Assembly (NCBI GenBank): GCA_010093995.1
Contig: ML992508.1
Location: 1,427,290 to 1,481,146 of the forward strand
DNA: 53,857 nucleotides
Reading direction: 5' to 3'
Origin: Elsinoe ampelina
Taxonomy: Eukaryota
Part shown: piece by piece, positions 15,368-53,857 of the stretch
How the letters are laid out: each line of letters opens with the position of its first letter
Numbering within the stretch: the first letter of the stretch is position 1
Program-made: the position numbers and the translations under genes
The notes under the pieces: model-generated
Told to the model about the DNA's origin: nothing
The model's database searches: none
Seen by the model: only the letters and a program-made list of their open reading frames with translations

Positions 15368-15441
15368 ATTTAGTACATAGTGCGTAAAGATAAGAAAGAA
15401 TACTTACTTATTAGAATAACTTAATTAAAGGAGGAGAGTAA

Positions 15442-22457: not shown

Positions 22458-22669
22458 TCTATTTATATAAATAATAGCTGCCTAGCTATTGTTAATAGTT
22501 ACTATTATTACTAGTAATTATAAGCTAAACTAATAGTAAATTCTTACTAATAATTAGCTAACACTAACAATTATAAGCAACTATAAAGAGATAAAGTAAT
22601 AAGCTAATCACTTTACCTATATATAACAGGACAGTTCTCTAGCTTTAACAATCTACACTAGAGGGGGAG

Positions 22670-26636: not shown

Positions 26637-27094
26637 GGCGGTGATTGTCCGAGTGGTTTGACATGTTGTCAATTTGTTTTAGCGGCCTCGAGCATTGATA
26701 TGAAACCATGGCGACCATTGTGCTGCAAGCCCGATCTCAAAATGTTGAGGCTGAGGTTCAGCTGAATGCTCAGCCGCACCACAATGCAGGGACTTGAAAC
26801 AGCCATAGCTGCGAGACTAGCTATATTTTGATCAGTGGTCATGTATCTGGGATGTCCCGATCTAGCTGATCATTGTGCTAGCATTGTGCTAGCGCTTGAC
26901 GATGTGATCGTATTGGTCGAGAAGACGAAACATCGACGGGAGGAGGTAAATGCGGCCGCATGAACGGCCCAGCCTGATCGGATCTGAAGGATTGACCAAG
27001 GGTTCATCCAACAGCCTAAAGAAATGATTTGGAACTTTGCCTAAATAGTGACTTCGTGCTGCAAGCTCTCAATTAGATCATGGAAGACATTGTG

Positions 27095-28003
27095 CTAATC
27101 CAGGCAATCGGAAAGGGTCCTTAAAATCTCGGCTTGGTGCTTGACGCATGGTGCAGAGTGACCTTCACCCTCGTATACTGTCAGCACTGCCCCCGGAATC
27201 CTTTGTGCCATGGCTCGACCAGCTGCTGCCGGTGCAATATCATCCTTCTCGCCGTACCACATTAAGACATTCACGTCCTTGATGTTGTCGAGCTGAAATC
27301 CCCAGGGTGCTACTGCAAGTGCCGCATCGTCGACGTAACCTCCTGGCCCTTGCGCAAAAGCACCTCGCAGTGCCTCAGTCATGCAATCAATAACCCAGTC
27401 GTTCTTACTGGCTTCGGCATCAACTCCATTCTGTGCCTTGATAGACTTCTCAACCGCACTTCGCAGCTTTGACTGATCTGGATCCCGTGCGGTCTTGCCC
27501 ACCATAAAGTCCCAGAGCCAACCTACTGCTCCAGCTGGCACTTTGTCCATGGCCCAGAAGCTGAATCTTTGGACCATTGACATGCCTTCGAATGTGAGAC
27601 CACGAGGTGGTAGACCAACAACTACACTTACTGCCTTTAAGCCTGGCAGCATGTCTCTTCTGGTACCACAAGCCAAGGCGTAAGCACCACCACCAGAGCT
27701 ACCGAGGACTGCGTAGCCAGTGACCTTGAGATGAGCGACTAGTGCGGCGACATCGACGGGATAGTCGACTACTTTGCGGGTGCTATGGCGAGTTGAAATG
27801 CCTAGACCAGGACGGTCTGGAGCAACAATGCGAATGGACAGGGCGTTGGCAGTGTCTTGCCAGAGTCGAGCCTCAAGACGTGAGCTGGGCAGGCCATGGA
27901 AGAAAATCACGACACGCTCATGCTGCGCACCGTAGTCTGCATATGCAAGCTTCCGTCCATCGGTCAAAATTAGGACGTTGAGGTCACTGTTGATCGAAGC
28001 CAT
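27095..28003 (-). CDS. Alpha/beta-fold hydrolase (Abhydrolase_1-like), 302 aa, intronless
   Basis: FHGLPSSR oxyanion motif, PDRPGLG, nucleophile elbow GSSGG, catalytic Asp (YGEKDD) and His (YEGEGH). Confidence 0.93.
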   Translation of the reverse strand: MASINSDLNVLILTDGRKLAYADYGAQHERVVIFFHGLPSSRLEARLWQDTANALSIRIVAPDRPGLGISTRHSTRKVVDYPVDVAALVAHLKVTGYAVLGSSGGGAYALACGTRRDMLPGLKAVSVVVGLPPRGLTFEGMSMVQRFSFWAMDKVPAGAVGWLWDFMVGKTARDPDQSKLRSAVEKSIKAQNGVDAEASKNDWVIDCMTEALRGAFAQGPGGYVDDAALAVAPWGFQLDNIKDVNVLMWYGEKDDIAPAAAGRAMAQRIPGAVLTVYEGEGHSAPCVKHQAEILRTLSDCLD

Positions 28004-28592: not shown

Positions 28593-31500
28593 TATCACGA
28601 ACTGTCTAAACACAGCTTACGCTAGTAGTCTAAGCTAAGCTAAGAACGAGGTAGTTCTACTTCTATAGCAGTATAGCACTAAGGTAAGAGTCGAAGAAGG
28701 TATGTCTTATAGATAATAAAGTACAATTAAATAGTATTATAAAGGCTAGCCTTGGCAATACTAGTGTTCGCTATCTAGATAAGGTTAACTATAGTACTTA
28801 TATAAGGTAAGGACTGCTCCTATATATATGTGTTCTTTACTATGTACTCTATATGCTCTATATACTCTATAGCGAGAGTCGGGAGCAATATAGAGTATAC
28901 ATCCGCTAGTAACCTATATACTTTATAGTTTTAGAGGTAGAGCTACTAGAGAAGATAGAGAACTAGGTAAACGTCGGGCTAAGTTACATAATGATCTTAG
29001 TAGCTTAATTAGTCCTAACGTCTCTACGTTCTAGCTGTTCTACTAGTTTATAATATTACTCTTCTCCTTTAATCAAGTTGTCCTAACAAGTAAGTATTCT
29101 TCCCTATCTTTATACGCTATGTACTAAACATGCCTCCTAGTTGTTAAAGGCATAGCAAATCTAGTACATCTACATAAAAGAATCTCTTAGAGTTTATCGA
29201 ACTATTCGGAACTAATATGCTATAGGCTTATTCTTGTTATAAATCGAAGGGGCTAGACTATAAGGTCTATGTTCGGTCGGGTATCTATAGCTAGTATATC
29301 GTAAGTAACTACTTAGGTTATAATATTTAGGTAACAAAATTAGAATAGTAGCGTCTCTAGTCTAAGTATATTCATTTACGAAAGGAATTAGTTATAGCTA
29401 AGGCTACTAGAAAGAAAGCCGAAGAAGCTTATAAAAAGGTAAAAGAGGCTTATTAAAGAGCTATAGGTAATAAGCTTCGCCTACGCGAAGAGATATAAAA
29501 GTTAAAGGACAAGGTAGAGGAAGTAATCTCTCTAGAAGAGACCTATATTTAAGTCTTAGAGTAGGAGGAAATACTATTATTAGTAGATCCTATCCTACTA
29601 TAGGATTAGTAGTTATTTATGCCTAACTCTAATTAGAGTTCCTTACTTAGCAACGATTAAGGTGCTTCTATTAGTTAAGTAATCTTCCTTAGGCGTCCTT
29701 GTTTTTGTTTAGTATTTAGGGTACTAGGTCTATCTAGTCAGTTTACTTAGGATAGGTTCTTAATCTAGTAATCTAGAATTACTTACGAGGTAAGGTACTC
29801 CTCTAGTTCCTATGTTGCTTTACTATACTAATGTCCCTTCTAGTAAATAAGATAGTAGCGTTTTTCTTTTATAAGTTTATAACGTAAAACCCTTTCGATC
29901 TTATACTATAGCTCTTATGTTTCTTTATCTAGTTCGATAGGTCTAGGTATAGTATTCTATAGTACTTTCTCTAGTAGTAATATATAAAAGACTAGATAGA
30001 TCCTTATATGTCTTAGTAGTTCTAGTTTATATACGTTCTTATTTTTCTTTTCTAGGATCTTAAAGAGTCCTAGTTTAGTATAGTTAAGTTTCTTACTTAG
30101 TTATTTTGTTTTAATGTTTTTACTAAGGAGGTAAACTTTCTCTCTCTCCTATAGAATTAGTCCTATAATTCTCTTCTAGTTAGTAAACTCTACCATTTTT
30201 TATAATATAAATGCTATATTATAGTATAGCTAGTCGTGTAGTTTCTTAATGTTAGCTACTAGTATATTAGCGTCCTTAGATATTAGCTTAATTCTAAGTG
30301 TGTTATAGTGTAGATCTAGGTATATTCTATAGTTTACATAGAATAGTAAAATTCTATTTGCTAACTTTCTATTGTTAATAGCGAGCTCTACGAGTAGTAA
30401 TAGCATTACCTATAAGTCTTGCTTATAGTTTAGGTAGTATTATAGGTACTACTCTAGTACTTAATTTGCCCGTTTAGTTTGTCTATCCGTTTATAAGTGA
30501 AAGGAGATTAATAGCTTATATTTAACTCCTAGTAGATCTATAAATAATTGCTAGAATTATAATGTAAATAGCTTATCTCTATTAGTTATTAGGTCTCGTA
30601 GTACTCTATGTTATAAAACAATTATTCGGAGAAAGGTAAAGGCTATATCCTCGGTAGTTGCTATTGTCTTATATAGTATAAAGTAGTAATACTTCGTAAA
30701 CCTATCTACTAGGACTAGAATACTATTATACTTCGCACCTATAAGAGGTTCTTCTAATAGTAGTAAAGGTCCTATAAAGTCTATCGTAACTAATTGCTAT
30801 AGTTTATCTAGTAGTAGCAAGGGTTATAATAGGCCGTATAGCTTGTGTTATAAGTACTTAGACTTGTAGCATATATCGCAGGTAGTAATATATGTCTTAA
30901 CATCGTTTCGGAGTTCTTTCTAGAGGTAGTTTTATATAATAAGTTTAATAGTCTTATCGATCCTGCTATGCCCTGCTATTAGGTTATTATAGTGTATTTA
31001 AATAACTTCTTTCTTCTATTCTTACGTAAGCTCCTAGGTAAGGCTATATAACTACTCTACCTTCGGGTACTTATAGACTAGAGCGCCGTCTTACTACTTT
31101 AGTATAGAGGCCTCTATTATTGTTATATTCTTTAAGTAGTCTAGTCGTCGGCTAAGAGCGTCTACTCTACTATTCTCTAATTCCTTAATATAGTAGATCT
31201 AAAAGTTATAGCTTATAAGTATTTCTAACTATCGAACCTGTCGTCTATTAAGAACCTTAGTTATTGTCTAATATAATAGGTTCTTATAGTTGGTATAGAC
31301 TTATATAGGTAAGGTTATTCCTTCTAAGTATACTCTCTACTCGCGGAATGCCTCTATAATTATAAGTAACTCCTTGTTGTATATGTTATAGTTAAGTTTA
31401 GGTCCGGTTATTTTTCGTAAGTAGTATATAATTAAGTAGCATTATTCTTCCGCGTCCTTCTATACTAGATACACTTCTATTACAAAGTCCGAGGCATTTG

Positions 31501-34500
31501 TTTCTAGTAGTGCTTATTAGTCTAGGTCGAAAAGTACTAGGACAGGTACTATTATAAGTCTAAGCTTTAGCTCCTTAAAGGCCTACCTATATCCCTTGTT
31601 AAAGACAAAGCTAGTTTCCTTTTTCGTAAGGTTAGATATTAGCGTAGCTACTTTAGAGAACCTCTTAATAAACTTATAGTAGTAGTTAAAGAACTTTAGT
31701 AGTGCTTAAACCTCCTTAACTGTTATAGGTTCTAGCTAGTTATTTACTAACTCGATCTTCTTTAGATTAGGCCCGATACTATTAGTAGATATAACATAGC
31801 CTAGAAATTATATCTTATACTTATAGAACTTACACTTAGAGAGTTTTACTAGTAGGTCTTTCTCTTTTAGTTTCTATAGTACTTTATAAATATGTCCTAT
31901 ATGTTTATTGTATATCTTTAAGAAGATAATAATATTGTCTAAATATGCTAAGATAAAGTTGTTAAGGTATTCTCGTAGAGTGTTATTAATTAACTCTTAG
32001 AAGGTTATAGGAGTATTAGTTAACCTAAAGGGCATAACGAGGTACTTATATAGACTCTATTATATCCTAAAAGCCGTTTTCTACTCCTTACTCTCCTTTA
32101 TTTACACTTAATAATAGGCGTCTTTAATATTAATTACAGTGAACTATTTAGCTCTAAGTAGTCGGTCTTAAAGTTTATCGATCCTTAGTAAGGGATAGTA
32201 ATTCTTCCTAGTAAGTATATTAAGTTTCTAGTAATTAATGTATATTTATAACGTCCTATCCTTCTTTAGTGTAAAAAGCACTCCGTACGTAATAGGTAAT
32301 TTTAATAGTTATATAAATCCTTTAAGTAAGTACTTATCGATGTAGTTCTTAAAGATATTCTCCTCTTATCTCGATAGTAGTATAAGACCTTAATAGTGTA
32401 TTAGGGATTTACCTTCTTTAAAAGGTATTTTATAATTCTATAGTTTATATTAGGGTAAGGCTATAATACCTTCTCTTTCTTTAAATAAGTCCTTAAAGTC
32501 TTTATATTCTAGTAGAAGTACTTAATTACTTACGCTAGCAATAGCCCTAACTATTAGTCGTACCTATACTATCCTTATAGTTAGTATCCGCGGAGCTAAT
32601 TATACTCCCTATATTCTATAATTATACTTAGGAAATTCGAGTGTTCCTTTAATCTAGTCTACGTCTAGATTGTGTTATTAAAGCTAGTCTATACTAAGTA
32701 CTATATTGTACTATATGTCTACTATATCGATTAATCGTTTTTCTATGTATATTTCGATTTTAATTATAACGTTCTATAGTTCCTAAGTAACTTTCCTATT
32801 CTTCCCTATAGAGGTTCTATCTGCTATAGTAAGTAGGTAAGGTAACTCCTTCTAGTGTTAATAAGGTTTAAGCTAATTAGTAACTGTTATAGAGATATAG
32901 CTATAGTTAGCTCCTAAATCTATTATTACTCTTACCTTACTCTCTTATATTTCGACTTCTAGTATAAAGTAGTTTAACGTATAGATCTTTATTATGTTAA
33001 GGCTTTAGCTAGTGTTATTGTCTTACCTTATTAGGCAACAACTAGCTAGTTTTTTGTTATTGTAGCTCCTTAGATAAGTAGCTAATCTCTTCCTGCACGT
33101 ATCTACTATTAGTACTATATCTATTAGGCAAGTTGTGTTTTGTTACTATTTAATATAGCAAGGTAAACTTCTAGCGCCTAAGTCCCTTAGTAGCTATAAA
33201 GTCCAATAATTCTCTACTAGTTGTACTAAGTAGTGTTATATACCCGTATAGGTATAACTATTCCTTCTAGGTGTAGCTAGGCGTTAGTATTAAAGACGAA
33301 AACAGGTTATATAGATTCGTCTTGTTACGTCCTATTCTAGTAGTAGGTGTATATTATTATATAATTCCTCTATATCCCTATAAGGTATACTTTAAGTCGT
33401 TTACCTAATAGTAGTACGTCGTTGTTATTGTTAGATAAGTCCTTATCTATGTTATTACATTGTAGTTGTTTAGTATATCTCTTGTTATATTCCTCTTCGT
33501 CGCTACCGCCCCTAGCGTAGTTATAGTTAGTAAGGCTACACTAAGTATATTCTTGTACTTAGCTATAGAGAATAGTACTACCTATTTTAATTACCGAGAA
33601 GTCCGTAGTATATTTAAGACTAATAGCCTCTTCTCTAAGTATATTGTATAAGTAAATAGTGTAGTACTATTCGCAATCTAGATTTGTACATTTCTAGAGT
33701 AATATATAATATGCCTTTCCTTATAGTACACTATAAGAGCTAAAGGTAAGGCTACTATATTATTATATAGTACTCGTGTCCTAATACTTCGTCTCGATAA
33801 TTGTATATTAGTGATTATTACTAACTACCTTCTAAGGTTAGTTACTATTGCTACTAATTATAGAAAGCTCTTCTAGGTTAGGTTCCTAGTCTAGCTATTT
33901 TATTAGTTACCTACGCTTAGATAGCTTATATAGGAACTAACTAGATCCCTACTTGTCTAATAAGTAAATATAATAAGAGTTATTATAATATACTATCTAT
34001 AATAGTGTTACGTGTTAGCTTTGTTATTTACTGTTAGTTATAGAAATATTAAGCGTAACATCCGGAGAGGATTCTCTTACCTCTTAAGTCGTCGTAGACT
34101 TCTTCTATGTTTCTTTACCTACGCTAAAGGTCGTTAGGTCTTCTATAGTAGTATTAGCCTTTTTCTCTACTAGCCTAGCAACTATTATATGTAATCTATC
34201 GGCTAGCGCCCCTTGTTAGTAGTCCCTAGCCCGATGCCTAGGTCTTTTATACTTAAAATATAAGTTGTCTTATCTATACTTCTCTCTCTCTTTTCTACTA
34301 AGGAACTTTCCTCTACGGCCGTAGCCTTATGCCTATAAGGGGTAGCCTTCGCGTATAGTATTAAGTTCTATAGGGTCTCTATAGTTTTAGGAGGAACGCG
34401 TATATCTAGTGTTTACCTTATATCCTCTATAACGTTCTATACGTCGTTTGTAAAGTCGGTTGTTAATAGCAATTATAGTATCTACTAGTTCTTAGAGGCT

Positions 34501-35607
34501 ATTAGGTAGCTCGAGTATTATTTAGTCTTTAACCGAGTTACTTAGTCCTTAGTAGAATACTAAATGTTTAGTACTATTATCCTAGTCTAGGTATATTACG
34601 AGTTGTTAGAACTAGGAATAGTACTAGGCTATAGACCTACGTTGTTATAGTTATTAGATCTTCGTCGCGGCGACGCACTTCTCGTTAGATACGTTAAAGA
34701 CTTGCTTAATCTTTGCCTAAAAGATGTTAAAGCTCTTAAAGATAGCCTTTATATCTAGGCTTAGTTATCTATCTAGGTAGCTACTTATATAAGGCTTAAA
34801 CTACCCGAAGGTAGCGCCTTTAAGGTGTATTCCGGCATAGAGGACCTTTACTGTGTCGTTAGCGTACTTGTCTCTCTCTAGGGCAAAGAAGGCTTTAAGT
34901 TAAACAAGGAAGCGCCTTAAGTAGGCGTAGTCCCTATAGAAGAGTTCTACTTCTAAATTAGGCCTACTCCGTCCTTCTATACTAAAAGACCTTCTATATT
35001 CGCCTAAGGTTAAACTAGTAGTAGATATGTCGTTAATAGTAAGCTTTCTTAGCTTACTAGTAATCGAAGATGCTAATAGTAACTTAGAGTAAGAGTTACT
35101 TATTAACCTCGTAGCGTGCTATACTATAGTAAGGGTAGTTAAAATGTTACGAACTGTCTAAATATAGCCTACGCTAGTAGTCTAAGCTAAGCTAAGAATA
35201 AGGTAGTTCTACTTCTATAGTAGTATAGTACTAAGGTAAGAGTCGGAGAAGATATATCTTATAGATAATAAAGTATAATTAGATAGTATTATAAAGGCTA
35301 GCCTTAGCAATACTAGTGTTTGCTATCTAGACAAGGTTAACTATAGTACTTATATAAGGTAAGGACTACTCCTATATACATGTATTCTTTACTATGTACT
35401 TTATGTACTCTATATGCTCCGTAGCAAGAGTTAAGGGCAATATAGAGTACACGTCCGCTAGTAACCTACGTACTCTATAGTTTCAGGGGTAGAGCTACTA
35501 GAGAAGATAGAGAACCGGATAAACGTCGGGCTAGGTTACGTAATAATCTCGGTAGCTTAATTAGTCCTAACGTCTCTACGTTCTAGCTATCCTACTAGTT
35601 CGTAACA
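28593..35607 (-). mobile_element. Full-length Gypsy A copy 3 (inverted), inserted at the end of Copia C RNaseH
   Basis: LTRs at 28593-29055 and 35145-35607; TSD TATAC (28588-28592, 35608-35612); reverse complement of 8890-15904. Confidence 0.95.
29130..29650 (+). pseudogene. Antisense Zn2Cys6-like ORF of Gypsy A (copy 3)
   Basis: atgcctcctagt start at 29130; homologous to the copies starting at 15367 and 21920. Confidence 0.62.
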
Positions 35608-38700: not shown

Positions 38701-41700
38701 TACTTAAAGTTACTTATATATATAGAGAATATAGTTAGATCCTCGCTATCGATAGAGTTATAGAGGCAGTAGAAGGCTTAATAGATGTTAATCTTACTAA
38801 ACTATTTAGCCTTACTTACGTACGTAAGTATTTCTTCGATAAGGGGCAGCGGATAGATATCTTACTTAGTTACCTCGTTAAGGCTATAGTAATTAATATA
38901 AAGGCGAAGTCCGCTACTAGGCTTATAAACAAAGAGAATAGGCAAGGAATAGCTAGCTAAGCTTAGCGTAATAAAGCCTTTATCGAGGTACTTATAGATA
39001 AACTATTCTACTATATCGAGCTCTTCTAGTAATAGGTAGCGTAGAGGTTTAGTACGTAGCAGTTTAGCTCTATCCTTAAGTGTAATTTAATTGTTAAAAT
39101 CTAGCCGATATAGAGAAAGTGTATTAGATTACTCTTTAGAGAAGATATTAGTAAACTCTTATAGCTCCTCTAGGAGAACTACTATAGAGTCTAGTTCTAG
39201 TTCGGAGGCTATTTAGTAGTAGTCCTTAATATCCTTTACTAAGATTATAAACACCTTGTTCTTTTAGTATTTAGCTACTAATATAAAGGCAGTAGCGCTA
39301 ATAAAAGCAATAGTTAGCCCTTCTTACTTAGTGTTACTTATGTAGGCAAGTATATAGGAGAACTTATATATTAACTAAGTACTATAGAAGATTAGCTTAA
39401 ACTCTCTCTAATTTAGCTTAAAGTTCGACCTAAGAGCTAGTAGCTAATATAGTCTAGTTCGTCCTAACTTAGTAGCCGAGCTAGAACTTAGTTCACAAGT
39501 TAGACTAGAACTGAACTAGTTCTAAACTAGGGCAGCGGCTTTGCCGAGCTAGATTCCTAGATCCGAGCTAAGCTTAGATCTAGATTCTAGCCTTTTAATT
39601 AGCTACGGTAGCTCCTACTTAACGACCGTTAGCGAAAACTCTTCTTTATATATAACTTAGCTATACTTATAGTCGATAGTGGCCCTATTAGCCTTAAGCT
39701 AGCCGAGGCTAAGAATAATATCGAATCGGCTAATATCTATAATACGAAAGATAGTAAGGTTATTTAGCTTACTAGAAACAGTAGTAGTAAGGGGAATACT
39801 ATATATAACTTGCTCTATTAGAACACTATTATAGGCTTAAAGCTAAATAGGGCTAGCTAGTGCTATAGGGTAGCTAAAGCTCTTTAGCTTATTAAGAATG
39901 TTATAATTAACTATAGCACTAATAAGCGCGCTAGTATCGATAAAGGCTTAAAGCGTAATAGTGTAAGAGTAGTTATAAGGGTCGTAAATAGTAATAGGAG
40001 TTATAATAGCGGGGATATAGTAGCTAATAACGCTATTTAGTAACTATATACCTCCGGATCTATCTTAAATTACTCTTATTCCGCTAGAGAATAGAACTTG
40101 TTCTCTAGCTACTTATTTCTCTAGCTAGAGTAGCCGGTAGACTTATAGTCTATTTCGGGGTTAAACTAAGGCTAAACTAGATCTAGTTTATAGGCCGAAC
40201 TAGTGTCGACCTAGTTGCTTAATTCGGCTAAGCGATTCTAAAGCTACTATATCTCCTCTATAGCACTAATACGTGTAGGGCGTATAGTAGTATAAGTAGC
40301 CTTCTCTAAGGCGCTAGCTATATACTTAGTAGAGATATGTCTAAGCTTACCGCATGTGTAACAGGTAAGTAATAGAGCTAGACGAAAAGGCTATAGAGTA
40401 CCTCTAGCGATAGAGCGGAAGGTAGGTAGAGCTATAGGCGCGGAGGTAGAATAAGGTACGTAAGTAGGTATAGTAGTAGTATAGCTTATAGCTAGTATAG
40501 AACGCAAAGCCTAAGTGCGCTTAGTAATAAGGTTGTTCTATTAGATATTATAGTTAGTAGCGTAGGCCTTAGTAATAAAAGTAGTAAGGTTATTAGTGTT
40601 ATAGTTAACTAGAGTATTACGTAGCTTATTAGATATCTTCTAATAGATCTAGTATAGCTACTCCTCTTTAGCGATCTTAGCGTAAAGGGCGTACTTATTA
40701 AACTTACTAATAAAAGAGTTAAACGTACTATTACGCTAGAAGAGGTTAGTAAACTAAGTACGTATAGTGGCCCTATAGTTAGGATCCTTAAAGCGCTAGG
40801 CTAGGAGAGTAAGGACCTCTTTAACGCTAATAATGTTATTACTAGCTAAGTCTATAACAAGGGTATAGGCTTCTCTAGAGAGATATAAGTATAGATAGAT
40901 AAACTAGGTATCTCTCGTAGGGAAACAATCTACGTTAGTATATATCTTGTTTCTTATCTAGTGCTTAAAGACCTCGAACTACTCCGGTATACCTGTGCTA
41001 AAGACAGTAGAGTCTAGTATCTTTTCTAATAAGGTAGAGCTACGTATAGAAAGGGCTAGTATACTATACTCTATCTCGTTTTTTAGTTAGTTTACCTTAG
41101 CCTTAAGCTTTTAGATTTTGTCTAGGTAGTAAGTAGCTTAGGTAGTAACACTATTAGTATAGGACTAAGATACGTCTAGTTTAGATTAGAGGTTGCCGAG
41201 CTAGGCCTAAGTAGTATCTAACTCGTAGTAATAGTAGAGAGCGTTAGTATAAGCGCCTTTTACCTACGTAGTCTACTTATTATAGAAGGACTTAATATAG
41301 TTAAATACGTCTCTTAGTGCCTATATACTATACTCTTTCTATAGCTTCTTAAGGAGTATAGCGTTAGAGAGGGCGAAAAGATTATAGTAGAGAGAGTAGA
41401 TAGAGGCATTATTATTGTTAGAAATAAGTTAAGGTAGCTTACTTTAGTAGCGCTCTTTGTTACTATAGTTAGATCGAGCTATACTTAGCATAGTTAGTCG
41501 TAAATAAAACAGTGTAAAACGTTAACACGTAACAAAGAGAATATTAAAATTTTTAGCTAGTAGCCTACTTCCTTTAAGAGTTATCTATAACTCGACTTAT
41601 TATCTTCTTTTTATATCTTTAGGGTTTATAGTATTAACCTACATAGCGGCAGCGAGGATCTAGAATAGTGTACGCGGGAACTACGATTGTAATAGCTTCT

Positions 41701-42013
41701 TCTTTAATTCTTTATAAGTAGTAGTTGTTAGTAGTTACGTAAGTAGTAGAATAACTAGATAATTTAGTAGCTCTATTACTCGGTCGCGGTCGCTTCGAAG
41801 TCTCGATATAGTAATTACAACTAGTAAGATAAGAGGTTAATTACGTCTATTTATTAAGATATTAAGACTTAGAAGAAGAAGAAGAAAACTAGTATATAAA
41901 GTATATATAATATCGAGGGTAGAGCGGCTAGAAGCCTAGGCCGCAATGCCGAGATTACATGACTAATCTAAACTAGATCCTAACTAAATCTAGTTCGTAT
42001 CTATCTTATATTA
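35771..42013 (-). mobile_element. Full-length Ty3/Gypsy chromovirus family B, RIP-inactivated
   Basis: 202-bp LTRs at 35771-35972 and 41812-42013; TSD AGCTT (35766-35770, 42014-42018); PPT at 35973-35988. De-RIP YLDDILIY (~38580-38605), protease DTG (~39935) and chromodomain VEVDGEEEYEV..WKGYP (~36100-36230). Confidence 0.92.
37569..37655. repeat. 12-bp tandem repeats inside Gypsy B pol
   Basis: (cgaaataggcag)-like x4, then (cgaactag....)-like x3. Confidence 0.8.
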
Positions 42014-43924
42014 AGCTTCTTAATTAGAGTAGTAATAAGATTAATAGTTTACTAATTATTATACTAAATACTAATATATTTAAGGGGATAGATAGAGGCT
42101 ATTAGCCTTCTCTACTATATAGCTTACTTAGTAGTCTCTATAAAAGTAAGTAGCTTAGCCTCTATAGTTAATATTATAACTATTAGTTGCTTTATAGCCT
42201 TCTAGTTAATTAATCCTTAAAATATCTTAAAGAGATAGCCTTAAAAGCTCTTCCTTATTAAGTAGCTACTAAAGCTAGTATCTAATAAAGCTTAAAAGAT
42301 TAGTAGTAGTATTAAGCTATTAAAGGTAAGAGCTAAATTCTTAGTTTTATAGAGATATTAGATTACTCTATTTACTATTCTCTAGTAAGTTAGTAATAGA
42401 TTTATTAGATACTCTAACAATCTAGAAGTAGCAAAGGCTATATTAGGCCTTATAATAACTACTATAAAGTTAATAGATCCAACCTTTTACTAATATAGGT
42501 AGATCTCTTATAGTAATACTTAGCCTTTATAAGGTTAGAGTATCTTAATTAGTAGTAGTATTAATACTAGCTTTATTAGTTCTATAATAAACTTACTATA
42601 TATCTATTATATATACTAGGCTTAGCTAAGCTAGAGTCTCTTTATTAGTCTATCTCTTATAACTTAGATAGCTAGAAACTAGCTTAGATCTCTAAGTACC
42701 TTTATCTTATATTTAGTATAGAGAGCTATAATAATAGTATTAGCTTTCTCCTTATACTTCTTAAGATATATAATAGTAATATTATCTATAAAGAAGAAGA
42801 TTATTACTTTAGGTATTATCTAGAGGTATAGAGCCTTAGGGGCTTAAGTAAATCTAATACTCTTTAGAGTAGTAGTAAATTTAGTATACTAGAGAGCTAA
42901 GGCTTACTTTAGGCTATATAGTGCCTTATTAAGTAATAGAATTACCTCTAATAGAGTAATACTAGGATAGTCCTTTATAAGATCCTCTACTACTAGCTTA
43001 AATCTAGTAGGGATAGTATAGTAGGTAGTTTTATTAATAGGACTATTAATATAGGTATTAATAACATCTATCTAGATAGCCTTTATATCTTTATAAGTAG
43101 GTAATACTATAAGCATTCTAAAGATCTTAGCTACTAGAGTTACTATATAAGTCTTAGATTTTATTAATTAGAGATTATTCCTTATATAGACTCTTACTTT
43201 ATACTTTATAACCTCTTCTTTATTATTAACTTTATAGGTAAATACCTATATTAAAGAGATAAGCTTACTAGTAGCTTAAGCTACTAGTATAATAGTCTAT
43301 ATATATTTTAAGTATAAAGTAAGTAATTTAACCTTTATAGCCTCTTAAAATTGCTTCTTATAAGGATAAGCTTTAAGCTCTCTAATATTAGCTAGTAGTA
43401 GTAGAAGATTATCCCTTAATTCTAGCTTAGGCTAAGTTAGTATTATTAATAGATAAGCATTAAAGGCTTAGTAATATCTAAGAGCCTTATTAGTTTATAT
43501 AAGAGTAGTAATATATACTTACCTTCTTAGTTTTCTTATTCTTCTTATTATAAGGATATATTTAGAAAGAAAGTTAGCTAACCTTATAGTAATTCTTTAA
43601 GGGAGTTACTTAGGCTAAGCTTTAACTACCCCTTTAGTCTAAACTTCTATCTTATCTCCTTTAGCTTTATCTCCTCCTAGTAGTAGAGGAGATAGCTATA
43701 CTACTATAGATAGTAGTAAGACTAGAGCATTAAAGAACTATTTATTTAGTAAAGATTCCTAGATCTAAGCTAGGTTTAGATCTAGAATAGCCTTATCTAA
43801 TTAGTCTAATAGAGGTAGTAACTAATCTAGTATAATAGGGTAACTCTTATCTAGCTACTAAGATAGGCTTAGCCCTTAATCTAGATTATTTTAACTTAGA
43901 GTCTAAGATAGTATCTAGTTTAGC

Positions 43925-44009
43925 TACTAAACTAGATTCTAAACTAGATTCTAAACTAGATACTAAATTAGATACTAAACTAGATTCTAAACTAGATACT
44001 AAACTAGAT
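43925..44009. repeat. 12-bp tandem repeat (ctaaactagatw)n in Copia C, running into a gap
   Basis: About 7 visible units before the N run. Confidence 0.9.
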
Positions 44010-44239
44010 NNNNNNNNNNNNNNNNNNNNNNNNNNNNNNNNNNNNNNNNNNNNNNNNNNNNNNNNNNNNNNNNNNNNNNNNNNNNNNNNNNNNNNNNNNN
44101 NNNNNNNNNNNNNNNNNNNNNNNNNNNNNNNNNNNNNNNNNNNNNNNNNNNNNNNNNNNNNNNNNNNNNNNNNNNNNNNNNNNNNNNNNNNNNNNNNNNN
44201 NNNNNNNNNNNNNNNNNNNNNNNNNNNNNNNNNNNNNNN
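44010..44239. other. 230-N assembly gap
   Basis: Run of N. Confidence 0.99.
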
Positions 44240-44667
44240 GTATCTATAAACTAGCTTAAAAGGAGTTTTGTAGTCTAGCTTCTTAAGAGGTATTCTATTA
44301 ATTAGATAGGCTACTAATCTATATAGTTTAGAGTATAATTCTCTTAGTAGATTAGTAAAGATAGTAATTGCCCTTACTCTCCTTAATAGTATAGCTCCTA
44401 TCCTTTTATTATAACTATTCTAAGCTTAAGTATAGGAAGTAGATAGCTTATAATAGATTCCTTTACTATCTAGGAAGATAGTAAATTTAAGGCTAAAGGC
44501 CCTTTTATTGTTACTCCTAAGGAATCTAATTTTAAAGCTAAGATTACTTTTAATATAAGTAATTATCTTAATACAGATTTTATTAATCTTATATCTATAA
44601 GTATAGGTAGTAACTAGTTAATAGTTAGTAGTTCTATAAGCAAAGTAGCTTATATATCTTACCTTAT

Positions 44668-45275
44668 TAATGCGAGATAGATACGAACTAGATTCAGTTA
44701 GGATCTAGTTTAGATTAGTTATGTGATCTTAGCATTGTAGCTCGGGCTTCTAGCTACTCTACCCTCGATATTACGCGTGCTTTATACACTAGTTTTCTTC
44801 TTCTTCTTCTAAGTCTTAATATCTTAACGAATAGACATAATTAACCTCTTGTCTTACTAGTTATAATTACTATATCGAGACTTCGATATAACTATAACTA
44901 AGCAATAGAGCTATTAAACTATCTAGTTATTCTACTACTTACGTAACTACTAATAACTACTACTTATAAAGAATTAAAGAATTAAAGAAGAAGCTATTAT
45001 AACTATAGTTCCCGCGTATACTATAATAGATCCTTACTACTACTATATAGATTAATACCGCAAACCCTAAAGATATAAGAAGAAGGTAATAAGTTAAGTT
45101 ATAGATAACTCTTAAAGGAAGTAGACTACTAGCTAAAAATTTTAATATTCCCTTTGTTACGTATTAACGTTTTATACTATTTTATTTACGACTAACTATG
45201 CTAAGCATAGCTTAATCTAACTATAGCGACGAAGAGCGCTACTAAAGTAAGCTACCTTAACCTATCTCTAACAAT
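44668..45275 (+). mobile_element. Gypsy B copy 2: 5' LTR (44668-44869) plus leader, interrupted
   Basis: Reverse complement of ~41415-42013. Confidence 0.9.
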
Positions 45276-45879
45276 TGTTAAGTAGAAGGCACGTTCGGGG
45301 GTAGAATATTATATAGAACTAATCGTATACTAGTTAGGTAATAGACAAGTTAGTTAATTAAAAGGAGTCTATCTACTAGAAGAAAGAACAGCTATAAATC
45401 TCTAGGCCTTAGCATTATATAACTTAAGGTTATATAACTTTATAGCCTAATTATCTAGAGAGAGCTATATTCTTAATACTCCTACTTAGCTCCTATAGAT
45501 AAGCTATTAGGTTAATAATAAGCTAAGTTACTTTATAAACCTTGTAAAGATCTAACCTTATAATAGCTTAGTTAACCTATTAGCTACTATATCTACTGTT
45601 CTTATAAACTCTACTTAAATCCTCTAGTCCCTCTATAGCCTCCTAATGTAGTAGTAAGCGACATTAATATACTTTGCCCTTTTATAAGTATATAGCTCTT
45701 TTATAAGTAAAAGAGCTACTCGGTTATTACTATTAATCCTAGTAGTAAAGGGTAATCTTATTATTGCTTTCTAAGATTCCTTTATAGTTAGCCTCTATAG
45801 TAATTGCCTAACTATCTTATAACAGCCTATATCTCTTAGTAACTAAGACAGGAACTGTAATTTCTTTATATAAGAGTAT
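45276..45879 (-). mobile_element. Copia B copy 2: 3' LTR (45276-45478) plus RNaseH end, interrupted
   Basis: Near-identical to 675-1278. Confidence 0.92.
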
Positions 45880-46669
45880 TATTACGAACTAGTAGAACAG
45901 CTAAAGCGTAGAGACGTTAGGACCAATTAAACTACTAAGGTTATTACGTGACCTAGCCCGACGTTTACCTAGTTCTCTATCTTCTCTAGCGGCTCTACCC
46001 CGGGGACTATAGAGTATATAGGTTACTAGCGGACGTATACTCTATATTGCCCCCGACTCTCGCTATAGAGTATATAGAGCATATAGAGTACGTAGTAAAG
46101 AACATATGTATATAGGAGTAGTCCTTACCTTATGTAAGTACTATAGTTAACCTCGTCTAGATAGCGAACACTAGTATTGCTAAGGCTAGCCTTTATAATA
46201 CTATCTAATTGTACTTTATTATCTATAAGATATACCTTCTCCGACTCTTACCTTAGTACTATACTACTATAGAAGTAGAACTACCTCGTTCTTAGCTTAG
46301 CTTAGACTACTAGCGTAGACTATGTTTAGACAGTTCGTAACATTTTAACTACTCTTGCTATAGTATAGCACGCTACGAGGTTAATAAGTAACTCTTGCTC
46401 TAAGTTACTATTAGCATCTTCGATCGCTAGTAAGCTAGGAAAGCTTACTATTAACAATATATCTACTACTAGTTTAACCTTAGGCAAACATAGAAGGTCT
46501 TTTAGTATAGAAGGACAGAGTAAGCCTAAGTTAGAAGTAGAACTCTTCTATAGGGACCGCGCTTACTTAAGGCGCTTCCTTGTTTAACTTAAAGCCTTCT
46601 TTGCTCTAGAGAGAGATAAGTACGCTAACGACGTAGTAAAGGTCCTCTATACCGGGATACACCTTAAAG
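45880..46669 (+). mobile_element. Gypsy A copy 4: 5' LTR (45880-46342) plus start of gag, interrupted
   Basis: Matches 8890-9679; similarity is lost after accttaaag. Confidence 0.92.
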
Positions 46670-47140
46670 CGTTACGAAAGTCCTAAGCGTAGAGAGTTAG
46701 AATATTAGGTTTCTCTATATTAAACTAAGTTTAACTACGTTAGGTTGCTATAAATACACTGCACCTATCTAAATTTAGTTAAACGCACTATGCCTATCTA
46801 ATTTTAGTTAAACGCACCGTACGTGCCTTAGATTAGATAAACGCTCTACTTGCCGCAACTAGAATAGATATAGAAATTAACAAGCATCTTCCGGAGAGGG
46901 CCCTCTAAGCTAGTATTATTATAGATCTTGTCCGCTAGATAGAGAGGAAGTATATGCTCTACATTATCGAAGCTTAGTATAGAAGTGCTTTTACTATAAT
47001 AAGAAAGTAGACATTATACGCCTTGTTCTCTAGCTTGTAACATAAAACCCTAAACTAATATATACTTATTCTAACTCTATTTTATCGTCTCTACTTAGTT
47101 GTCTATTAAGGTGTTAGATGTCTCTAAAGACAAGTACTTT

Positions 47141-47545
47141 TACGCGACTATATAGCTAGTAACAAAGGTTAATACTAACGAAAAGCGCCTCTATTACTCT
47201 ATAGCCTACGAGTTCTACTATCTAGTAGCCTATATCGTCGACAATGTAAAACAAGCTTATAGAGGGGCATTTATAACTTAGGCTCGTAGATATAAGGAAG
47301 CTTTTCCCGAGAAGGACTTAATTATTATAGCTAAGTATAGTTACGACATTAAGTATAAATACTTATAGACCTGTTCTAGTACTTAGAAGTCGTCGGTAAT
47401 ATAGAAAGAGAATAATAATAGAAGCTAGATATACTACGTTAATAGTAGCTATAGTAGCGAGGCTATAGCCTATTCTAAGAAGATTAACACTAATATAGAC
47501 AGGTACGGGAAATATAATAGACATTTAGTTTAGGCTAAGCTAATC
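47141..47545 (+). pseudogene. SprT-family (GCNA/ACRC-like) HExxH zinc metalloprotease, RIP-inactivated
   Basis: One frame reads KVNTNEKRL..SIAYEFYYLVA..QAYRGAFIT*A..KYSYDIKYKYL*TC..YSKKINT..DRYGKYNRHLV*AK. It de-RIPs to AHEFCHLA..HG.AF..WA..KHSYDIEYKYLWTC..HSKKID..RCGKC.G.LVQ.KP. Confidence 0.78.
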
Positions 47546-48699
47546 CCTTATCTACTAACACGGAATAGTATACCTACTAGAAGGATAATTCTAGAGCTAC
47601 GAAAGACTACCTAGAAAAGTAAGGTCTAACGAACATCGGTATAGTATCTAAGTAGCCTCGGAGATAGTACTAAAGATATAATAGTCTAACCGACAGCTCG
47701 AAGACAGTTATAGCGAAGAAGTAAATACTCTTTCTAGGAAGTTTAAGATCTATCTCGACTGCCTATCTATAAGGTTATCGGTAAGGAGGTAATTAGTAAT
47801 AATAAGAAACTCCTTTCGCTTCTTACTCTTCTTCTCTACCTTACTAAGCTTAATACTAGCACGGCTATAGACACTAGCGAAGGTAGGGGTAGTACGCTTC
47901 TCGCCTTACTAGCTCTCGGCGCTAGTTATAGTAGTCGTTAGAGAGGTAATAGAGGCAGTGTCTAGGTTAAGATCGTAGCACTTTATTACTATATATTAAA
48001 GATAAGATTACCTTAATGTACACTAAGCTTCTAGTAATAACCCGTAGTCGTAGCTATATACGAGCAATAGTAGTTATAGAGGGAGCGGTAGTAGTAGCTT
48101 CAGTTACGGTGTACCTTACTATAGCGGAGAGTAAGGAGAAAGGTATAGGGGAGAAAGGGGATATTCCCCTCTCGGAGGTAGGTATAATAACACTTTTTCC
48201 TACTATATCCTACCGCTCTACTATTACTACTACTAAGTAGTAGTTGCAGTAATAGCGCGTATAGAATAATCTAGTGTATAATCTTATAGACAGGATTTGT
48301 CGTATATATATTATATACTAATAATCTTATAAGGAAATACTTACGACCTACGTAGATATAGAGGAGGCTTTAGAGGATAAGGAAGAGGCTACTTACCGTA
48401 CTAAAGGGTAGCTTCTTCCTCGACTTGTTTCTCGCGTATAGTATATATATAAAGATTAATAAGAATGTTCCCTAGTAGGTCTTCTAAGCTAGTGTTATTA
48501 TAGATCTTATCCGTTAGATAGAAAGGAATAAGTCCTTAGTAACTACTCTAGTAGCATTAAGTAGATCCCTGCGATATAATAGCGAATAGAGCAAAGTACT
48601 ATTGTCTATATTAGAGTCTTATTAGTAAACTTATTATAGAGAATAAACTTTCCTCTTAGACCGCTAACTCCGTTAGTAAAACTAACCTAAAGATAACTT

Positions 48700-51600
48700 A
48701 CTAACCTAAGCCTTTTACCGCTATTGCTAAATACTTAGAGTATGTCTTAAGTATCTTAAAGACTAACTTCTATAACGCCTCGCTATAATTTCCTAAGCTA
48801 TTGTAATTAGTAAAGAAATAGACTAACTCTTTAGCGTAAAAACTACATAAGGCACCTTAGGCTATAAACCCTATATAGTTTAGAGACTAACCTAATAATA
48901 TATAGGTGTAAACTAACTAGTTAGGGTAATACCTATAGAAGTTATTATAACTCGCCTACCTAATATAGTCTAGTAGTTAACCTAAGTGTACCTAAGCGTT
49001 AAGCTATCGATATAAGAGATAATTGTTCTAGCTACGAAAGGAGTACTCTAGCTTCGTTAATGCCTACTACGCTTACTAACTACGCCTAGGGATCTTAACC
49101 TCTCTTGTTTTAAAGCCTTAGCTAGGTAGAGCTATTTAGACTCCTATAACTTATTCTATAGCATGTTATATGTGTTAAAGTCGGCTATGTTATTAATGTA
49201 TATCTAGCTATATAGCCTTATTTTATTTACCGGCACGACGTAGATACTATAGTAGATTTACGAGGTAGAGTAGATACGCCTACTAGTAAGAGTGTTCCGT
49301 CTAGCTCGCGCGTGTCGATTTATCTAAGGCTTAATTAGTGTTATGCTATACTCTCGATTAGCTACTCTATTCGGCTAAGTAGGCTAATATAGATCTACTA
49401 GCGCTCCTATGTAGTATAGGCGTTAACGCTAGCCTAATCTACTAGACTAGAAGCTATCCTCTATAGTTATTATAAATATAATACGAGCTAGTAACTTACC
49501 TTATAGGCTATTAGGTAATACTCCGTTAGTGCCTTTATTATTTATTGTCTATTCTTGCACCTAGAGCTAGTCTTGCCTCTTATTGCTATATATCCCTTAC
49601 TATTTAGTTATACACTAGATAAAGTCTTATTCGTCCGTATTAGAATTATTAGAATTATAGTTAGATAGTTTCCTATACTTTAAAGAATAGTAGAACTTAA
49701 CGCGGAGGTTACTTACCCGGGAAGAATCTAGTTCGAGTCTATCGGGATCTAGTTTAGCGTTAAACTAATTAGAGTATTTAATTCTCGAGTTAGAGCCTAT
49801 CTTAGCTATACCTTAATAAGCCTCGCGGACAAATACTACTATTACTTACTATAGTAATAGCCTAGGTAGCATGTTAATAAGCACCTCTAGTTCTCTTACT
49901 ATATGCTATATAGCTTTCCCTTTAGTGCTAGGCTAGCCGAACTAAGAAGTAATATTTACTATATTACTTACGCCGACTAGCGTACTCTAGATCTTAATTA
50001 GTTTAGTAGCCGATAGCCTAACTAACTTCGAGGGGTTATCGAATACTACTAACATGTTTATTAGTTTAGTATTATAAGTAGTAACCTAGTCTTTCTATCT
50101 AGCCTTCTTGTTTGTAAGTTTAAAGGTGTCCTTAATAAAGCGTACATAATTGTGCTCTAAATAATTAGAATTAAGGCTAGTAACTACTCTAAAATCATAG
50201 ATAGCCTTTGAAAAATGTGTTATTAAATGCTATTTCGGAAAGTTAAAGTTGCTTTTTTCTTTTCTGTCGCTATAATAGGCCTAGAAGGTTTCTTTGTACT
50301 TGTTTATCCTAAAGAGCGTAAGGTTAATATACTAGAGTATATCGTTGTTATAGGTCTTATAGTTCACTAGTAATATAAAGTCGACTAGTGCGCGTATAAA
50401 CTTAATAGCTTAAGGCGCCTTAACCTCCTCGAGTAGTAGTATAAATACTAGAAGCATCTAGCGTACGATACTCTTCTACTCTTAACCTGTCTATTGCTTA
50501 ATAGCTAAGTAGTACAAGAAGTGTCGGATGCTAAAAAACACTAGTATACTATCGAAACGCTTATTAATAATATTAAGTATAATCTTCTTTACCGAGTGCT
50601 AGTAGCCTATTCGCTACATAGTCTCTCTAGCCTTTATATACTATAGTAATCTCTATGTAGGTATTAAATCCTAGAGCAATTTTTAAGTCTAGTATAAGAC
50701 GTATATTAAAACGCCTTTAAGAAGTTAGTGTAGAATATCTAGTACTATTACGTAGTGAATATTAGTATACGGAAGATCCTATATAAAGCAACTAACTATA
50801 TAAACCTAAGAGCTTATATCTATCTTCTCGCTCCGCTACTAACTCTTATATGCTTCTCTTTATAAGTGCTATTGTCGCTATATAGAGTAGTAAGTTTAAA
50901 ACGGCATAGTAACTAATAGGTCCTACCTTTCGTCCTTGCTAATTAGGCAACTTATATAATGATATAGTAACTTTATACTAGTTATAGTGACCTATTCGGC
51001 GTAATTCGTAGGTATAGTAGTAAGTATAGGGAAGTACCTCTACCTCTTTCTATCTATATAGGAGATTATTTTGCCCCCTCTCGAGTAGTAATTAATAATA
51101 GCATTAAAGATTTTTTTTATATAAGTATAGTAGGTCTTCTCCTTAACAACATTACTACTATCTTTAATAATAGGAAGTAAGCTAATTAGTAACTACCCCG
51201 GCCGGTAGTTGCTATTACATGCTTTCGCCTTTAGGTTACCTAATAATAGATAGATAGTATATACTATAAGATCTCCTTAATGGTTTATTACCTAGGTCTA
51301 ATTACTCGCGACGATTAATGGGATAATAGTAGCCCCTAGTATTCTAAGTCGCTTTTGTATGTCCTACTACTAGTCGCTACTTACTATTTTAGTATATACT
51401 TGTTGTAGTAGCTTACTCTCGATAGCTTCTATAAAGACTCTATACGGGCTATAGTCTATGTCTACTACGAAACTGCAATAGCTAAGTAAGAAGCGTATCG
51501 CTATAAGAATATCTAGATACTAGAACGTGTGTCTTTTAGGCCTACGATTAGTGTTTAGTATAAAGCTTAAGGTCTACTAGCCGTTAATGCCCTCGCCTGT

Positions 51601-52600
51601 ATCTAAATTCTCTATCTTCTCTATTAGTTTATTCGTAGTTTGCTAACTAAGGCTCTCTACTAGAGGTTATATACGTAGGTCTTTAAGCAATTATATAATT
51701 GCAGCTCTACTAAGTTTCTCCTTTATAAGCTACTAGGTAAGACCTACGTCTATGCCGCTAATAAAGGCTTCCTTTAGTTAAGTCTTGCCTAACTAATTGT
51801 GATTTAGTTTATTGTCGGTGTTAGTATATATATTATAGACTTAGGGAGATCTAGACAAGATTAGTCGACGTAAACTAAGGATAAACTATGTCTATAACTA
51901 ACTCTTCGCTGCTAGCTAGTATACTAGTAGCTATCTCGAATGTAGTATAATCGGATATAGCTCTACTAGATAAGGACAACCTCCTAGTACTCCGCCCTAT
52001 AGACGTGCTACTAGTTATACTTACTGTAATTACTTACTCTTTCTCGTGTGTACCTTCTATTATAACCTCGTCTATGTCCTTCTCTTCCTCGTGTACGTCG
52101 CTATTAAGCCTACTATTACTATTACTATCTGTTCTACGTGCTAAAGGTCAAGAGTTAAGGTCGGTAAAGAGACTAAGAGGATTGTCCGCTATGCTATACT
52201 ATATAGTAGGCAAAGGGGGAAGGACACTCTCTGCCGGCTATAGACTTTTATTTCTACTCTAGTGTTTAGTTTAATTCTTAGTTACTGTTATTCGCGGCGG
52301 AGTAAAGTAGACTAGCGAGTTATTTAGCATCGGTAGACTATGTCGTACATTACTAGTAATACTACCTTATTAGCCTTTATTAGATAGTAAGCGCTCTCCC
52401 TTATTAAATAAGTAAGGATTGTTACTAGCGTCGTCTCTACGTAGATGTCTATTGCTACGTTACTCTAGTAAGACTTACGCTATGTTACTTATTAGTAGCT
52501 CTCTCCTCTAGTAATATAGTAGATGTTAGATAAGGCCTCTACTAGATTATATAATCTTCCCGTAGGCCGAGTATTTACTAATTTGCCTTAGTATATCTAT
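48700..52600 (-). pseudogene. Plavaka transposase (PF18759-like) with N-terminal zinc finger; ends approximate
   Basis: De-RIP KCSACGK..S..GLTQH (~52520-52575), VYTEMASSDWWWDIQ..GATIIPLIVASDQTQ (51290-51400), LGNL..RP..LIGLLP (~51170-51245), DYAEQ (~51000), PDILHQLLKGVF (50708-50745), FNFPK (~50240). Confidence 0.82.
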
Positions 52601-53470
52601 ATTTGTCGCTTAAGATCTAAATTTATAGTTAGAGTTAGCTAGTTAAATTTTAGCGATAGTAGGAAGTAGAAAACGTTTAGATACTATATTATATTAGGTG
52701 ACCTAAAAGATAGTTTAACATGCACGGGGAACTAAATTAGTCTACTAAACTAAAGAATTGTATTTTTAGGTAATATAGTTAGACTATTATTTAGTAATCT
52801 TAATTATTATCTACAACAATTATGTTCTTCTTTGCTATAGCTTATTAAAGTTTCTAGATCTCTACTCTTTACTTGTCTATTTCCTCGTAGATAACCTTCT
52901 ATATTATTAATAGCCTACTCTATCTACTATTAAGCCATTCTAGAGGCCTATAGAACAGAGCTATCGGCTTTATTATAAACGCCTCTATATAGTTAGCTTT
53001 CTAAGACTTAATATTCCTACGGACCTAAGCTAGACACTAAAGGATAGATTATAATACTAACGCTATATCGAGCAAGATTATAGTGTCGAAGCGGTTTAGA
53101 TTAAGACTAGTCTTAATAGCTCTACCCTAGGCAATTAAGATCCTTAAGCCTTCTAGCCTATTAGGTTTAATAAATGTATTATTAGATATAGCTACGTCAA
53201 CGATATTTATATAGGCAGGTATAGATATTATTCTATAGTAGACAATAACTATATTAGTATCCTTATCGATTCTAATTGCTTTACTATCTAGGTACTTCTC
53301 GAGCTATTTTAGATACTATGCCCTTATTAGCAATAACCTAAATAGACTAAATAGACCGAACTAACTATCGTAGCGACCGCTAGTACTAATAGTATAAATA
53401 TATAGACGATTACTCGCCTCTTTAGCTCCTTCGAATAGGAGACATTCTACTTAATAATCTCGGAAATAAC

Positions 53471-53857
53471 TATTACAAACTAGTAGGACAAGCTAGAGCG
53501 TAGGGATGTTAGGACTAATTAAACTACTAAGGTTATTACGTGACCTAGCCCGATAATTACCTAGTTCTTTATCTTCTCTAGCGGCTCTACTTCGGAAACT
53601 ATAGAGCATATAGGATTACTAGTAGACATATACTCTATCTTCTCTAGTAGCGCTACTACGGAGCACGTAGAGCATATAGAGTACGTAGTAAAGAATATAT
53701 ATATATAGGAACAGTTCTTACCTTATATAAGTACTATAGTTAACCTTGTCTAGATAGCGAATACTAGTATTACTAAGGCTAGCCTTTATAATACTATCTA
53801 ATTGTACTTTATTATCTATAAGACATACCTTCTCTAACTCTTACCTTAGTACTATAC
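53471..53857 (+). repeat. Gypsy A LTR variant, truncated by window end
   Basis: tattacaaactagtagg start; colinear with the other Gypsy A LTRs except ~53635-53660. Confidence 0.9.

Follow-up and report, generated by a model that had tools for sequence, protein, structure and literature searches.

The window analysed here, a stretch of 53,857 nucleotides of Elsinoe ampelina DNA, holds the RIP-degraded remains of a SprT-like (GCNA-type) gene (47057-47706, forward strand) about 3 kb away from the remnant of a Plavaka transposase. The block is probably an internal fragment of about 0.6 kb of a lineage-specific host gene, which was captured by a Plavaka-family transposon, amplified and destroyed by RIP. 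According to this proposal, the internal fragment would have joined the Plavaka-family DNA transposon, it would then have been copied with the element to tens of copies, and fragment and element would have been destroyed together by RIP. The fragment would have lain between the transposon ends and would have been moved by its transposase. Similarity limited to the block suggests that the direction was from host to element, and the fragment would never have encoded a working protease while it resided in the element.

Identity and extent of the SprT-like block

The block lies in two frames joined across a frameshift:

47057..47548, forward strand: SprT-like block, first frame, comprising the last strand, the catalytic helix, the third zinc ligand and the zinc ribbon (tblastn with P0001, P0002, P0003 and P0017; RIP-tolerant alignment; codons)
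47549..47553, forward strand: frameshift relative to the un-RIPed P0001, with 5 nt where P0001 has three codons
47554..47706, forward strand: continuation of the SprT-like block in the other frame, matching P0001 residues 96-146, with 45 of 51 residues identical after RIP reversal

P0001 (KAF2227634.1, 211 aa, E. ampelina), P0002 (PNS19499.1, 388 aa, Sphaceloma murrayae) and P0003 (KAF4554397.1, 371 aa, Elsinoe fawcettii) are the only close relatives among the phmmer matches described below, and P0017 is a Dothideomycetidae protein of canonical length.

The translation of 47141-47545 contains, in this order, IAYEFYYLVAY, AYRG, KYSYDIKYKYL followed by a stop and TC, and YSKKINTNIDRYGKYNRHLV followed by a stop. 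A single C>T or G>A change separates each of the motif residues in question (H, C, W and Q) from the present codons (TAC GAG TTC TAC TAT and so on), and the series is read from these codons as the RIP remains of HEFCH, HG, the KH.Y.IEYKYLW.C strand and the HSK..D...RCG.C.G.LVQ ribbon. The raw translation, with X at stops, had no Pfam SprT match; the residues needed by the profile are RIP-mutated. A phmmer search with 47099-47545 (X at stops) against 1.84 billion representative proteins returned 120 proteins at E<=1e-3 and three at E<=1e-10, the best matches being P0001 (3.3e-21), P0002 (4.0e-14) and P0003 (9.5e-12). Sixteen of the matches were scanned with Pfam, and 14 of these contain the SprT-like domain PF10263, mostly together with a SprT zinc ribbon and in some cases with an HMG box. 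The remaining two are P0001, which is without the protease half, and P0093 (151 aa, E. ampelina), strings of which were found in several frames of the window at about 47207-48408, including the dead SprT pieces. The deposited gene model P0093 is almost certainly spurious and not a real gene.

For the comparison of RIP-mutated DNA with intact proteins, a local alignment was used in which a codon of the window stands for any codon reached by undoing C>T or G>A changes, with the score shifted so that random alignments go negative and with six shuffles as the null. The alignment to P0002 scored 351.5 against a shuffle maximum of 43.5 (n=6), and 107 of the 165 columns formed by P0002 residues 107-268 and the first frame were identical once C>T and G>A were undone. 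The comparison with P0001 was gapless over 143 codons, of which 79 are identical, 52 differ by C>T or G>A only and 12 differ otherwise, so that 131 of 143 codons match after reversal. In-frame stops occupy 12 of the 143 codons and all 12 revert to W or Q of P0001. Moreover, 46 of 53 reverted bases stand in a TpA context, TpA being the product of RIP. Judged by these alignments, 47057-47706 descends from an SprT-like gene of the fungal family that combines SprT, zinc-ribbon and HMG-type parts. Neither HExxH (now YEFYY at 47207-47221), the third His (HG, now YR) nor the ribbon Cys (now Tyr, Y...Y) is still intact; they are best regarded as ancestral and now destroyed, all changes relative to P0001, P0002 and P0003 being C>T or G>A steps. 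An earlier sequence-only reading had claimed that a frame of about 135 codons at 47141-47545 carries SprT motifs restorable by undoing C>T and G>A, and this claim was borne out by the codons, the phmmer matches and the alignment score, as was SprT/GCNA-type descent by the PF10263 domains of the scanned matches.

The extent had been given too narrowly in that reading: the frame 47141-47545 is homologous, but the homology in fact covers about 47057-47706 across the frameshift. It starts at about 47057-47117 and ends at 47706 in another frame; measured against P0002, the upstream start falls at residue 107 and is firm from about residues 124-130 (47057-47135), and the SprT match is robust from about 47117. 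The part in the second frame covers the helices with which the C-terminal domain, in HMG-box position, begins. Overall, the block is an internal piece of about 0.6 kb that corresponds to about residues 107/124-303 of the 388 residues of P0002.

The protease part upstream of the block, which is strongly conserved across an alignment of 61 sequences (about residues 50-113 of P0002, a long helix and two strands in the model), was searched for with residues 1-125 and 40-125 of P0002 and 1-125 and 60-125 of P0057, a second SprT-like protein of E. ampelina. In the three forward frames of 46300-47130 the RIP-tolerant scores reached at most 43 against shuffle maxima of 38-45, and in six frames of 44300-53857 only null-level scores were obtained, in a search that could miss a strongly diverged N-terminus. 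Likewise, the conserved C-terminal tails of P0001, P0002 and P0003 scored at null level on both strands of 44.3-53.9 kb, the tail of P0001 (residues 147-211) being absent downstream of 47706 as well as elsewhere in this region. This tail matches P0002 and P0003, with invariant FIAP.D and P.EYD, and not the window. Neither a complete protease domain nor an open reading frame is present in the window copy.

The Plavaka remnant, its repeat unit and copy number

The window is mostly AT-rich (GC 0.22-0.39), with one GC-normal island at about 23-28 kb. Over 44.5-53.9 kb the RIP indices are 1.6-2.5 for TA/AT and 0.18-0.38 for (CA+TG)/(AC+GT), compared with 0.42-0.67 and 1.17-1.53 in the GC-normal island, and this region is heavily and uniformly RIP-mutated. 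The indices are equal over the SprT block and the Plavaka transposase remnant, which agrees with the earlier statement that the RIP level of the block matches that of the element. The features of the region are:

45873..46669, forward strand: Gypsy LTR (about 467 bp) and the first 326 bp of the internal region, cut short where it meets the unit, 90-92% identical to 8887-9679 and other copies
46670..53470, no strand assigned: multicopy repeat unit with the SprT block and the transposase, defined by contig depth, with Gypsy LTR sequence on both sides
46751..46808, forward strand: tandem pair of 29-bp units (79% alike), some 80-140 bp inward of the left junction
46860..46949 and 48439..48528, forward strand: 90-bp direct repeat pair, 81% identity, spacing 1579 bp
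47213..47217, no strand assigned: position of a Gypsy LTR insertion in another genomic SprT copy, with joints from 47217 to 45882 and from 46342 to 47213 and a 5-bp target duplication
50707..51552, reverse strand: remnant of the Plavaka transposase catalytic domain (PF18759, E 1.2e-28, 100.7 bits with a cut-off of 26.3, profile positions 32-317 of 325)
53471..53857, forward strand: start of another Gypsy LTR (repeat comparison), which truncates the unit on its right at the window end

The Plavaka remnant was detected in a six-frame Pfam scan of 40001-53857; it is RIP-degraded and stop-rich, and a word-indexed homologue search with its translation gave no matches. The same scan located a Copia-type RVT_2 remnant in RIPed DNA at 42589-43269 on the reverse strand (E 1.1e-8). 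Further short repeat families, of about 600 bp and 86-96% identity, occur at 44667-45885, 675-1283 and 41414-42014, and their presence immediately before the Gypsy LTR shows that this area is built as a mosaic of repeat fragments nested in one another. A Gypsy-type element of 6.55 kb, with the order reverse transcriptase, RNase H, integrase and Tf2-type SH3 domain, is present in three copies of 89-91% identity, two of them as tandem units that share the middle LTR (8887-22458) and one inverted (28600-35607). These copies stand on either side of the GC-normal island, towards which their LTRs at 22002-22458 and 28597-29063 are turned, and the island, which is free of RIP, has four long open frames, two on the forward strand (23030-23584 and 23812-25635, the latter of 607 aa) and two on the reverse strand (26025-26672 and 27095-28003). 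The window additionally contains a gap of 10 N at 7079-7088 between exact 95-bp duplicates (6984-7078 and 7089-7183), a duplication that is probably an assembly artefact, and a second gap of 230 N at 44010-44239.

The SprT frame had been placed between the left junction of the element and a convergent transposase. The transposase is indeed convergent, with the PF18759 remnant about 3 kb downstream of the block, but the left junction at about 46668-46670 proved to be the junction with the Gypsy fragment, without a recognisable Plavaka terminus; in contigs, other copies of the Gypsy piece continue differently after 46667/46669. It was considered whether the Gypsy LTRs at 45873 and 53471 belong to one element that encloses the unit; no Gypsy internal sequence precedes 53471. 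The SprT block lies between the two copies of the 90-bp direct repeat, which may be a trace of the way in which the fragment was acquired or simply a short repeat without connection to it; the 29-bp tandem units may be subterminal repeats. Terminal inverted repeats were searched for around the SprT-Plavaka unit in plain and in purine/pyrimidine-coded sequence and nothing convincing emerged. Plavaka termini are given in PMC12730594 as TGT..ACA or CATCA..TGATG with target duplications of 2-3 bp, and neither these termini nor target duplications were found here, where both ends abut Gypsy LTR sequence and RIP would blur the motifs. The missing inverted repeats and target duplications count against capture by the transposon.

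Copy number was assessed with contigs from two runs (X1 and X2) of one sample of one study, in which about half of the sampled words of 46670-53470 were present. At 80% likeness, 8241 (X1) and 5699 (X2) contigs were placed on 45800-53857. The X1 contigs comprised 2176 with at least 99% identity, 2476 with 95-99%, 2689 with 90-95% and 900 with under 90%, and 609 of 621 changed places in X1 were transitions (A>G 124, C>T 159, G>A 185, T>C 141), the other 12 being transversions. Summed contig depth, which is not a copy number, amounted in X1 to 64-220k over the LTR, 86k over the Gypsy internal piece and 5.9-18.6k in every bin of 46607-53331, including 10.8k and 10.1k in the SprT bins and 9.3-11.4k in the transposase-domain bins; single listed contigs had depths of 137-399. 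Distinct contigs with alternative letters numbered at least 14 at 47285, at least 10 at 47550 and at least 7 at 47716 on the SprT side, and at least 21 at 50061, at least 19 at 50534, at least 10 at 50789 and at least 16 at 50916 on the transposase side. Over the unit, between 7 and 21 distinct variant contigs were listed at most places. The whole stretch of about 46.7-53.4 kb is multicopy, and its SprT and transposase parts have similar summed depth.

These data bear on the possibility that the block is a single-copy host gene which lay beside transposons and was destroyed by leaking RIP. Leakage of RIP into neighbouring unique DNA is known in ascomycetes, and a self-comparison revealed no second copy of the 46670-53470 unit inside the window. 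Against this stand 7-18 distinct variant contigs at places within 46755-47716, a summed depth of about 10k compared with 137-399 for single contigs, and the second SprT copy with the LTR insertion at 47213-47217, whose joints were represented by one contig each in X1 and X2. Since the stretch is multicopy, leakage into a single-copy neighbour is excluded; the contigs refute this explanation unless they come from another organism in the sample, and it is scarcely credible. Among the observations that the sequence-only reading had named as fatal to it were the lack of any SprT relationship and a single-copy segment; both were looked for, and what was found were 120 phmmer matches and multicopy contigs.

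Another explanation holds that the SprT block and the Plavaka remnant do not form one mobile unit but are two repeats, or parts of a larger duplicated segment or composite, that reached similar copy numbers otherwise. It is consistent with the lack of detected termini, with the Gypsy sequence that cuts both sides of the window copy, with the direct repeat that brackets the block and with the lower depth between the two parts, 5.9-6.9k at 47683-48220 and 48759-49027. Moreover, the contigs are at most 260 bp long in this region and too short to bridge the block and the transposase, so that no single record links the two in another copy. On the other hand, depth varies by no more than about threefold over 6.7 kb and remains above the 137-399 of single contigs throughout, the RIP level is uniform, and none of the 12 loose ends listed (396 more exist) lies between the parts. 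We regard this explanation as unlikely, though it deserves to be kept in mind. The earlier claim that the block was multicopy cargo of the element holds with respect to multiplicity and to a summed depth similar to that of the transposase part; no Plavaka termini were found around the block, and its presence in individual other Plavaka copies is judged by depth only.

The contigs also bear on the integrity of the block. At 47550, where 10 distinct contigs were available in X1 and 11 in X2, no length variant was listed at the frameshift 47549-47553 and all of these contigs keep the spacing of the window. A joint that skips the SprT block was not listed among the contigs over 45800-53857, and the only indel listed over the whole stretch is at 49921; the absence of indels and joints is weak evidence, as contigs drop rare variants. 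About half of the gene, a frameshift and no complete protease fold or tail therefore point to a captured fragment and not to a working protease. The SprT piece was most likely disabled early, considering that it is part of a gene with a frameshift common to all variants seen. The hidden working DPC protease of the sequence-only reading was not upheld: only an internal block with a frameshift and 12 stops is present, and the N-terminal half and the tail were undetectable.

Relatives of the block and the possibility of a functional cargo

The three close relatives form a tiny subfamily known from three Elsinoaceae species only, with 46-47% identity between members. In a FastTree of 119 phmmer matches (P0093 left out) they form a clade on a long branch with a local support of 98, and P0057 (KAF2227633.1, 301 aa) is the sister of this clade with a support of 95 in this quick tree. 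A word-indexed homologue search with P0002 among proteins of near length found only P0002 and P0003, with 46% identity. In P0057, R replaces the first His of HExxH. The motif is retained in P0002 and P0003, as are the third His and the cysteines of the ribbon. P0001 and P0057 have consecutive accession numbers, P0057 first, and are located on a contig of 3,306,712 bp other than that of the window, which suggests that they are neighbours in the genome. The gene model of P0001 begins at an internal Met, without the protease half; P0001 is un-RIPed and up to 92% identical to the block once RIP is discounted. RIP length thresholds are known from Neurospora, and the length of the shared stretch, about 0.6 kb, may explain how the host copy escaped RIP.

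P0001, P0002 and P0003 are without the long N-terminal region of the canonical P0017, P0007 and P0011, and extra residues in the zinc-ribbon region occur in these three proteins, P0057 and P0017 and not in P0007, P0009 and P0011. The shared extra residues would fit an origin of the subfamily from the local canonical gene. Canonical relatives have HMG_box matches at the aligned position, where the model of P0002 has two or three helices; for P0001, P0002 and P0003 no HMG_box match was obtained at E<=5. The AlphaFold model of P0002 has a mean pLDDT of 73.5 with core blocks at 84-98, and a Foldseek search with it gave only two matches at E<=0.001, 6mdw and 6mdx (probability 1.00), both entitled 'Mechanism of protease dependent DPC repair' and both of the human SPRTN protease domain. 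P0002 is accordingly modelled, and so predicted, to fold like the SPRTN protease plus its zinc-binding subdomain. A PDB sequence search with P0002 yielded a His-tag artefact only. A metagenome scan with the alignment of P0001, P0002 and P0003 retrieved five loci with 32-36% identity, which are canonical relatives and do not belong to the subfamily, and tblastn of the RIPed Plavaka piece against these five SprT loci, a weak test, gave no match.

Several of these properties would also be expected if the SprT-like gene were a complete, functional accessory gene of Plavaka, with P0001, P0002 and P0003 as surviving element-borne copies and in analogy to the TET/JBP genes of other Plavaka families. 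Its protease would then attack proteins bound to DNA, for example the transposase complex or adducts of DNA methyltransferase type. The block equals the transposase in summed depth, faces it in convergent orientation and lies near one boundary, and the subfamily is tiny, confined to three Elsinoaceae species and diverged to 46-47% identity; the identity of only 46% between P0002 and P0003 speaks against capture in so far as it would also fit a fast-evolving element-borne gene. The motif residues retained in P0002 and P0003 and the match of the P0002 model to 6mdw and 6mdx further agree with a functional cargo, and Plavaka elements are known from PMC12730594 to carry an enzyme gene. However, the window copy is without the N-terminal protease part and the conserved tail, the frameshift is without length variation among the contigs, P0001 stands beside its SprT paralogue P0057 in what looks like a host tandem pair, and co-mention of SprT and Plavaka was not found in the literature searched. 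This explanation is rather improbable.

Equally improbable is the broader idea that the short Elsinoaceae SprT-like proteins without disordered region (P0001, P0002 and P0003, perhaps also P0057) were born on Plavaka and are working DNA-dependent proteases in intact elements. If this were true, such proteases would help the transposon, for instance by stripping transposase or methyltransferase-type adducts from DNA, and the window would hold a decayed, truncated descendant. In a weaker variant, a captured fragment would expose the host protease gene to homology-based silencing.

Relation to known systems and meaning of the probably captured fragment

The preferred reading, capture of a host gene fragment, resembles a known kind of event. 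Cut-and-paste transposons capture fragments of host genes by transduplication, as in Pack-MULEs, plant CACTA/EnSpm elements and Mutator-like elements. Similarly, an internal piece of a host gene stands here beside a transposase, was amplified, would already have been disabled and has an intact relative elsewhere in the genome; the homology is limited to a part of a host gene that exists outside the element, P0001 and P0057 being on another contig. In contrast to the Pack-MULE and CACTA cases, the host is a RIP-active ascomycete, the transposon belongs to the Plavaka lineage, the source is a protease of DNA-repair type, and the capture would have taken place inside an element whose termini are undefined.

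In its catalytic helix, zinc ligands and zinc ribbon, and where the domain in HMG position begins, the block is homologous to proteins of GCNA/ACRC type and to SPRTN (PF10263; PF17283). Unlike canonical fungal GCNA-type proteins, P0001, P0002, P0003 and P0057 have no long disordered N-terminus and no Pfam HMG_box match, and unlike GCNA and SPRTN genes, the window copy is without about half of the gene and RIP-dead.

Plavaka, KDZ and other fungal DNA transposons are described in PMC12730594 as encoding a TET/JBP dioxygenase. As in those transposons, a transposase of the Plavaka lineage is accompanied here by a second gene for a DNA-directed enzyme. The TET/JBP cargo is a complete, presumably functional dioxygenase and occurs in Agaricomycotina, Pucciniomycotina and Pezizomycetes according to PMC12730594, whereas the SprT-like piece of the window is partial, frameshifted and located in a Dothideomycete. 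The words 'SprT' and 'protease' each occur zero times in PMC12730594, and a pairing of SprT with Plavaka or with a fungal DNA transposon was not found in the literature searched.

As it stands, the finding adds a further case to a type of event already known, and no transposon-encoded DPC protease is demonstrated; its interest is modest unless intact co-located SprT-Plavaka pairs occur in sister species. If capture is the correct reading, a case would be documented of a Plavaka-lineage transposon in a RIP-active plant-pathogenic ascomycete that took along part of a host gene of DNA-repair type and multiplied it. Furthermore, RIP-tolerant comparison can recover genes that are missed by ordinary profile searches. 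The Elsinoaceae hold a small, fast-evolving offshoot of GCNA-type proteases, the relation of which to transposons is worth a look.
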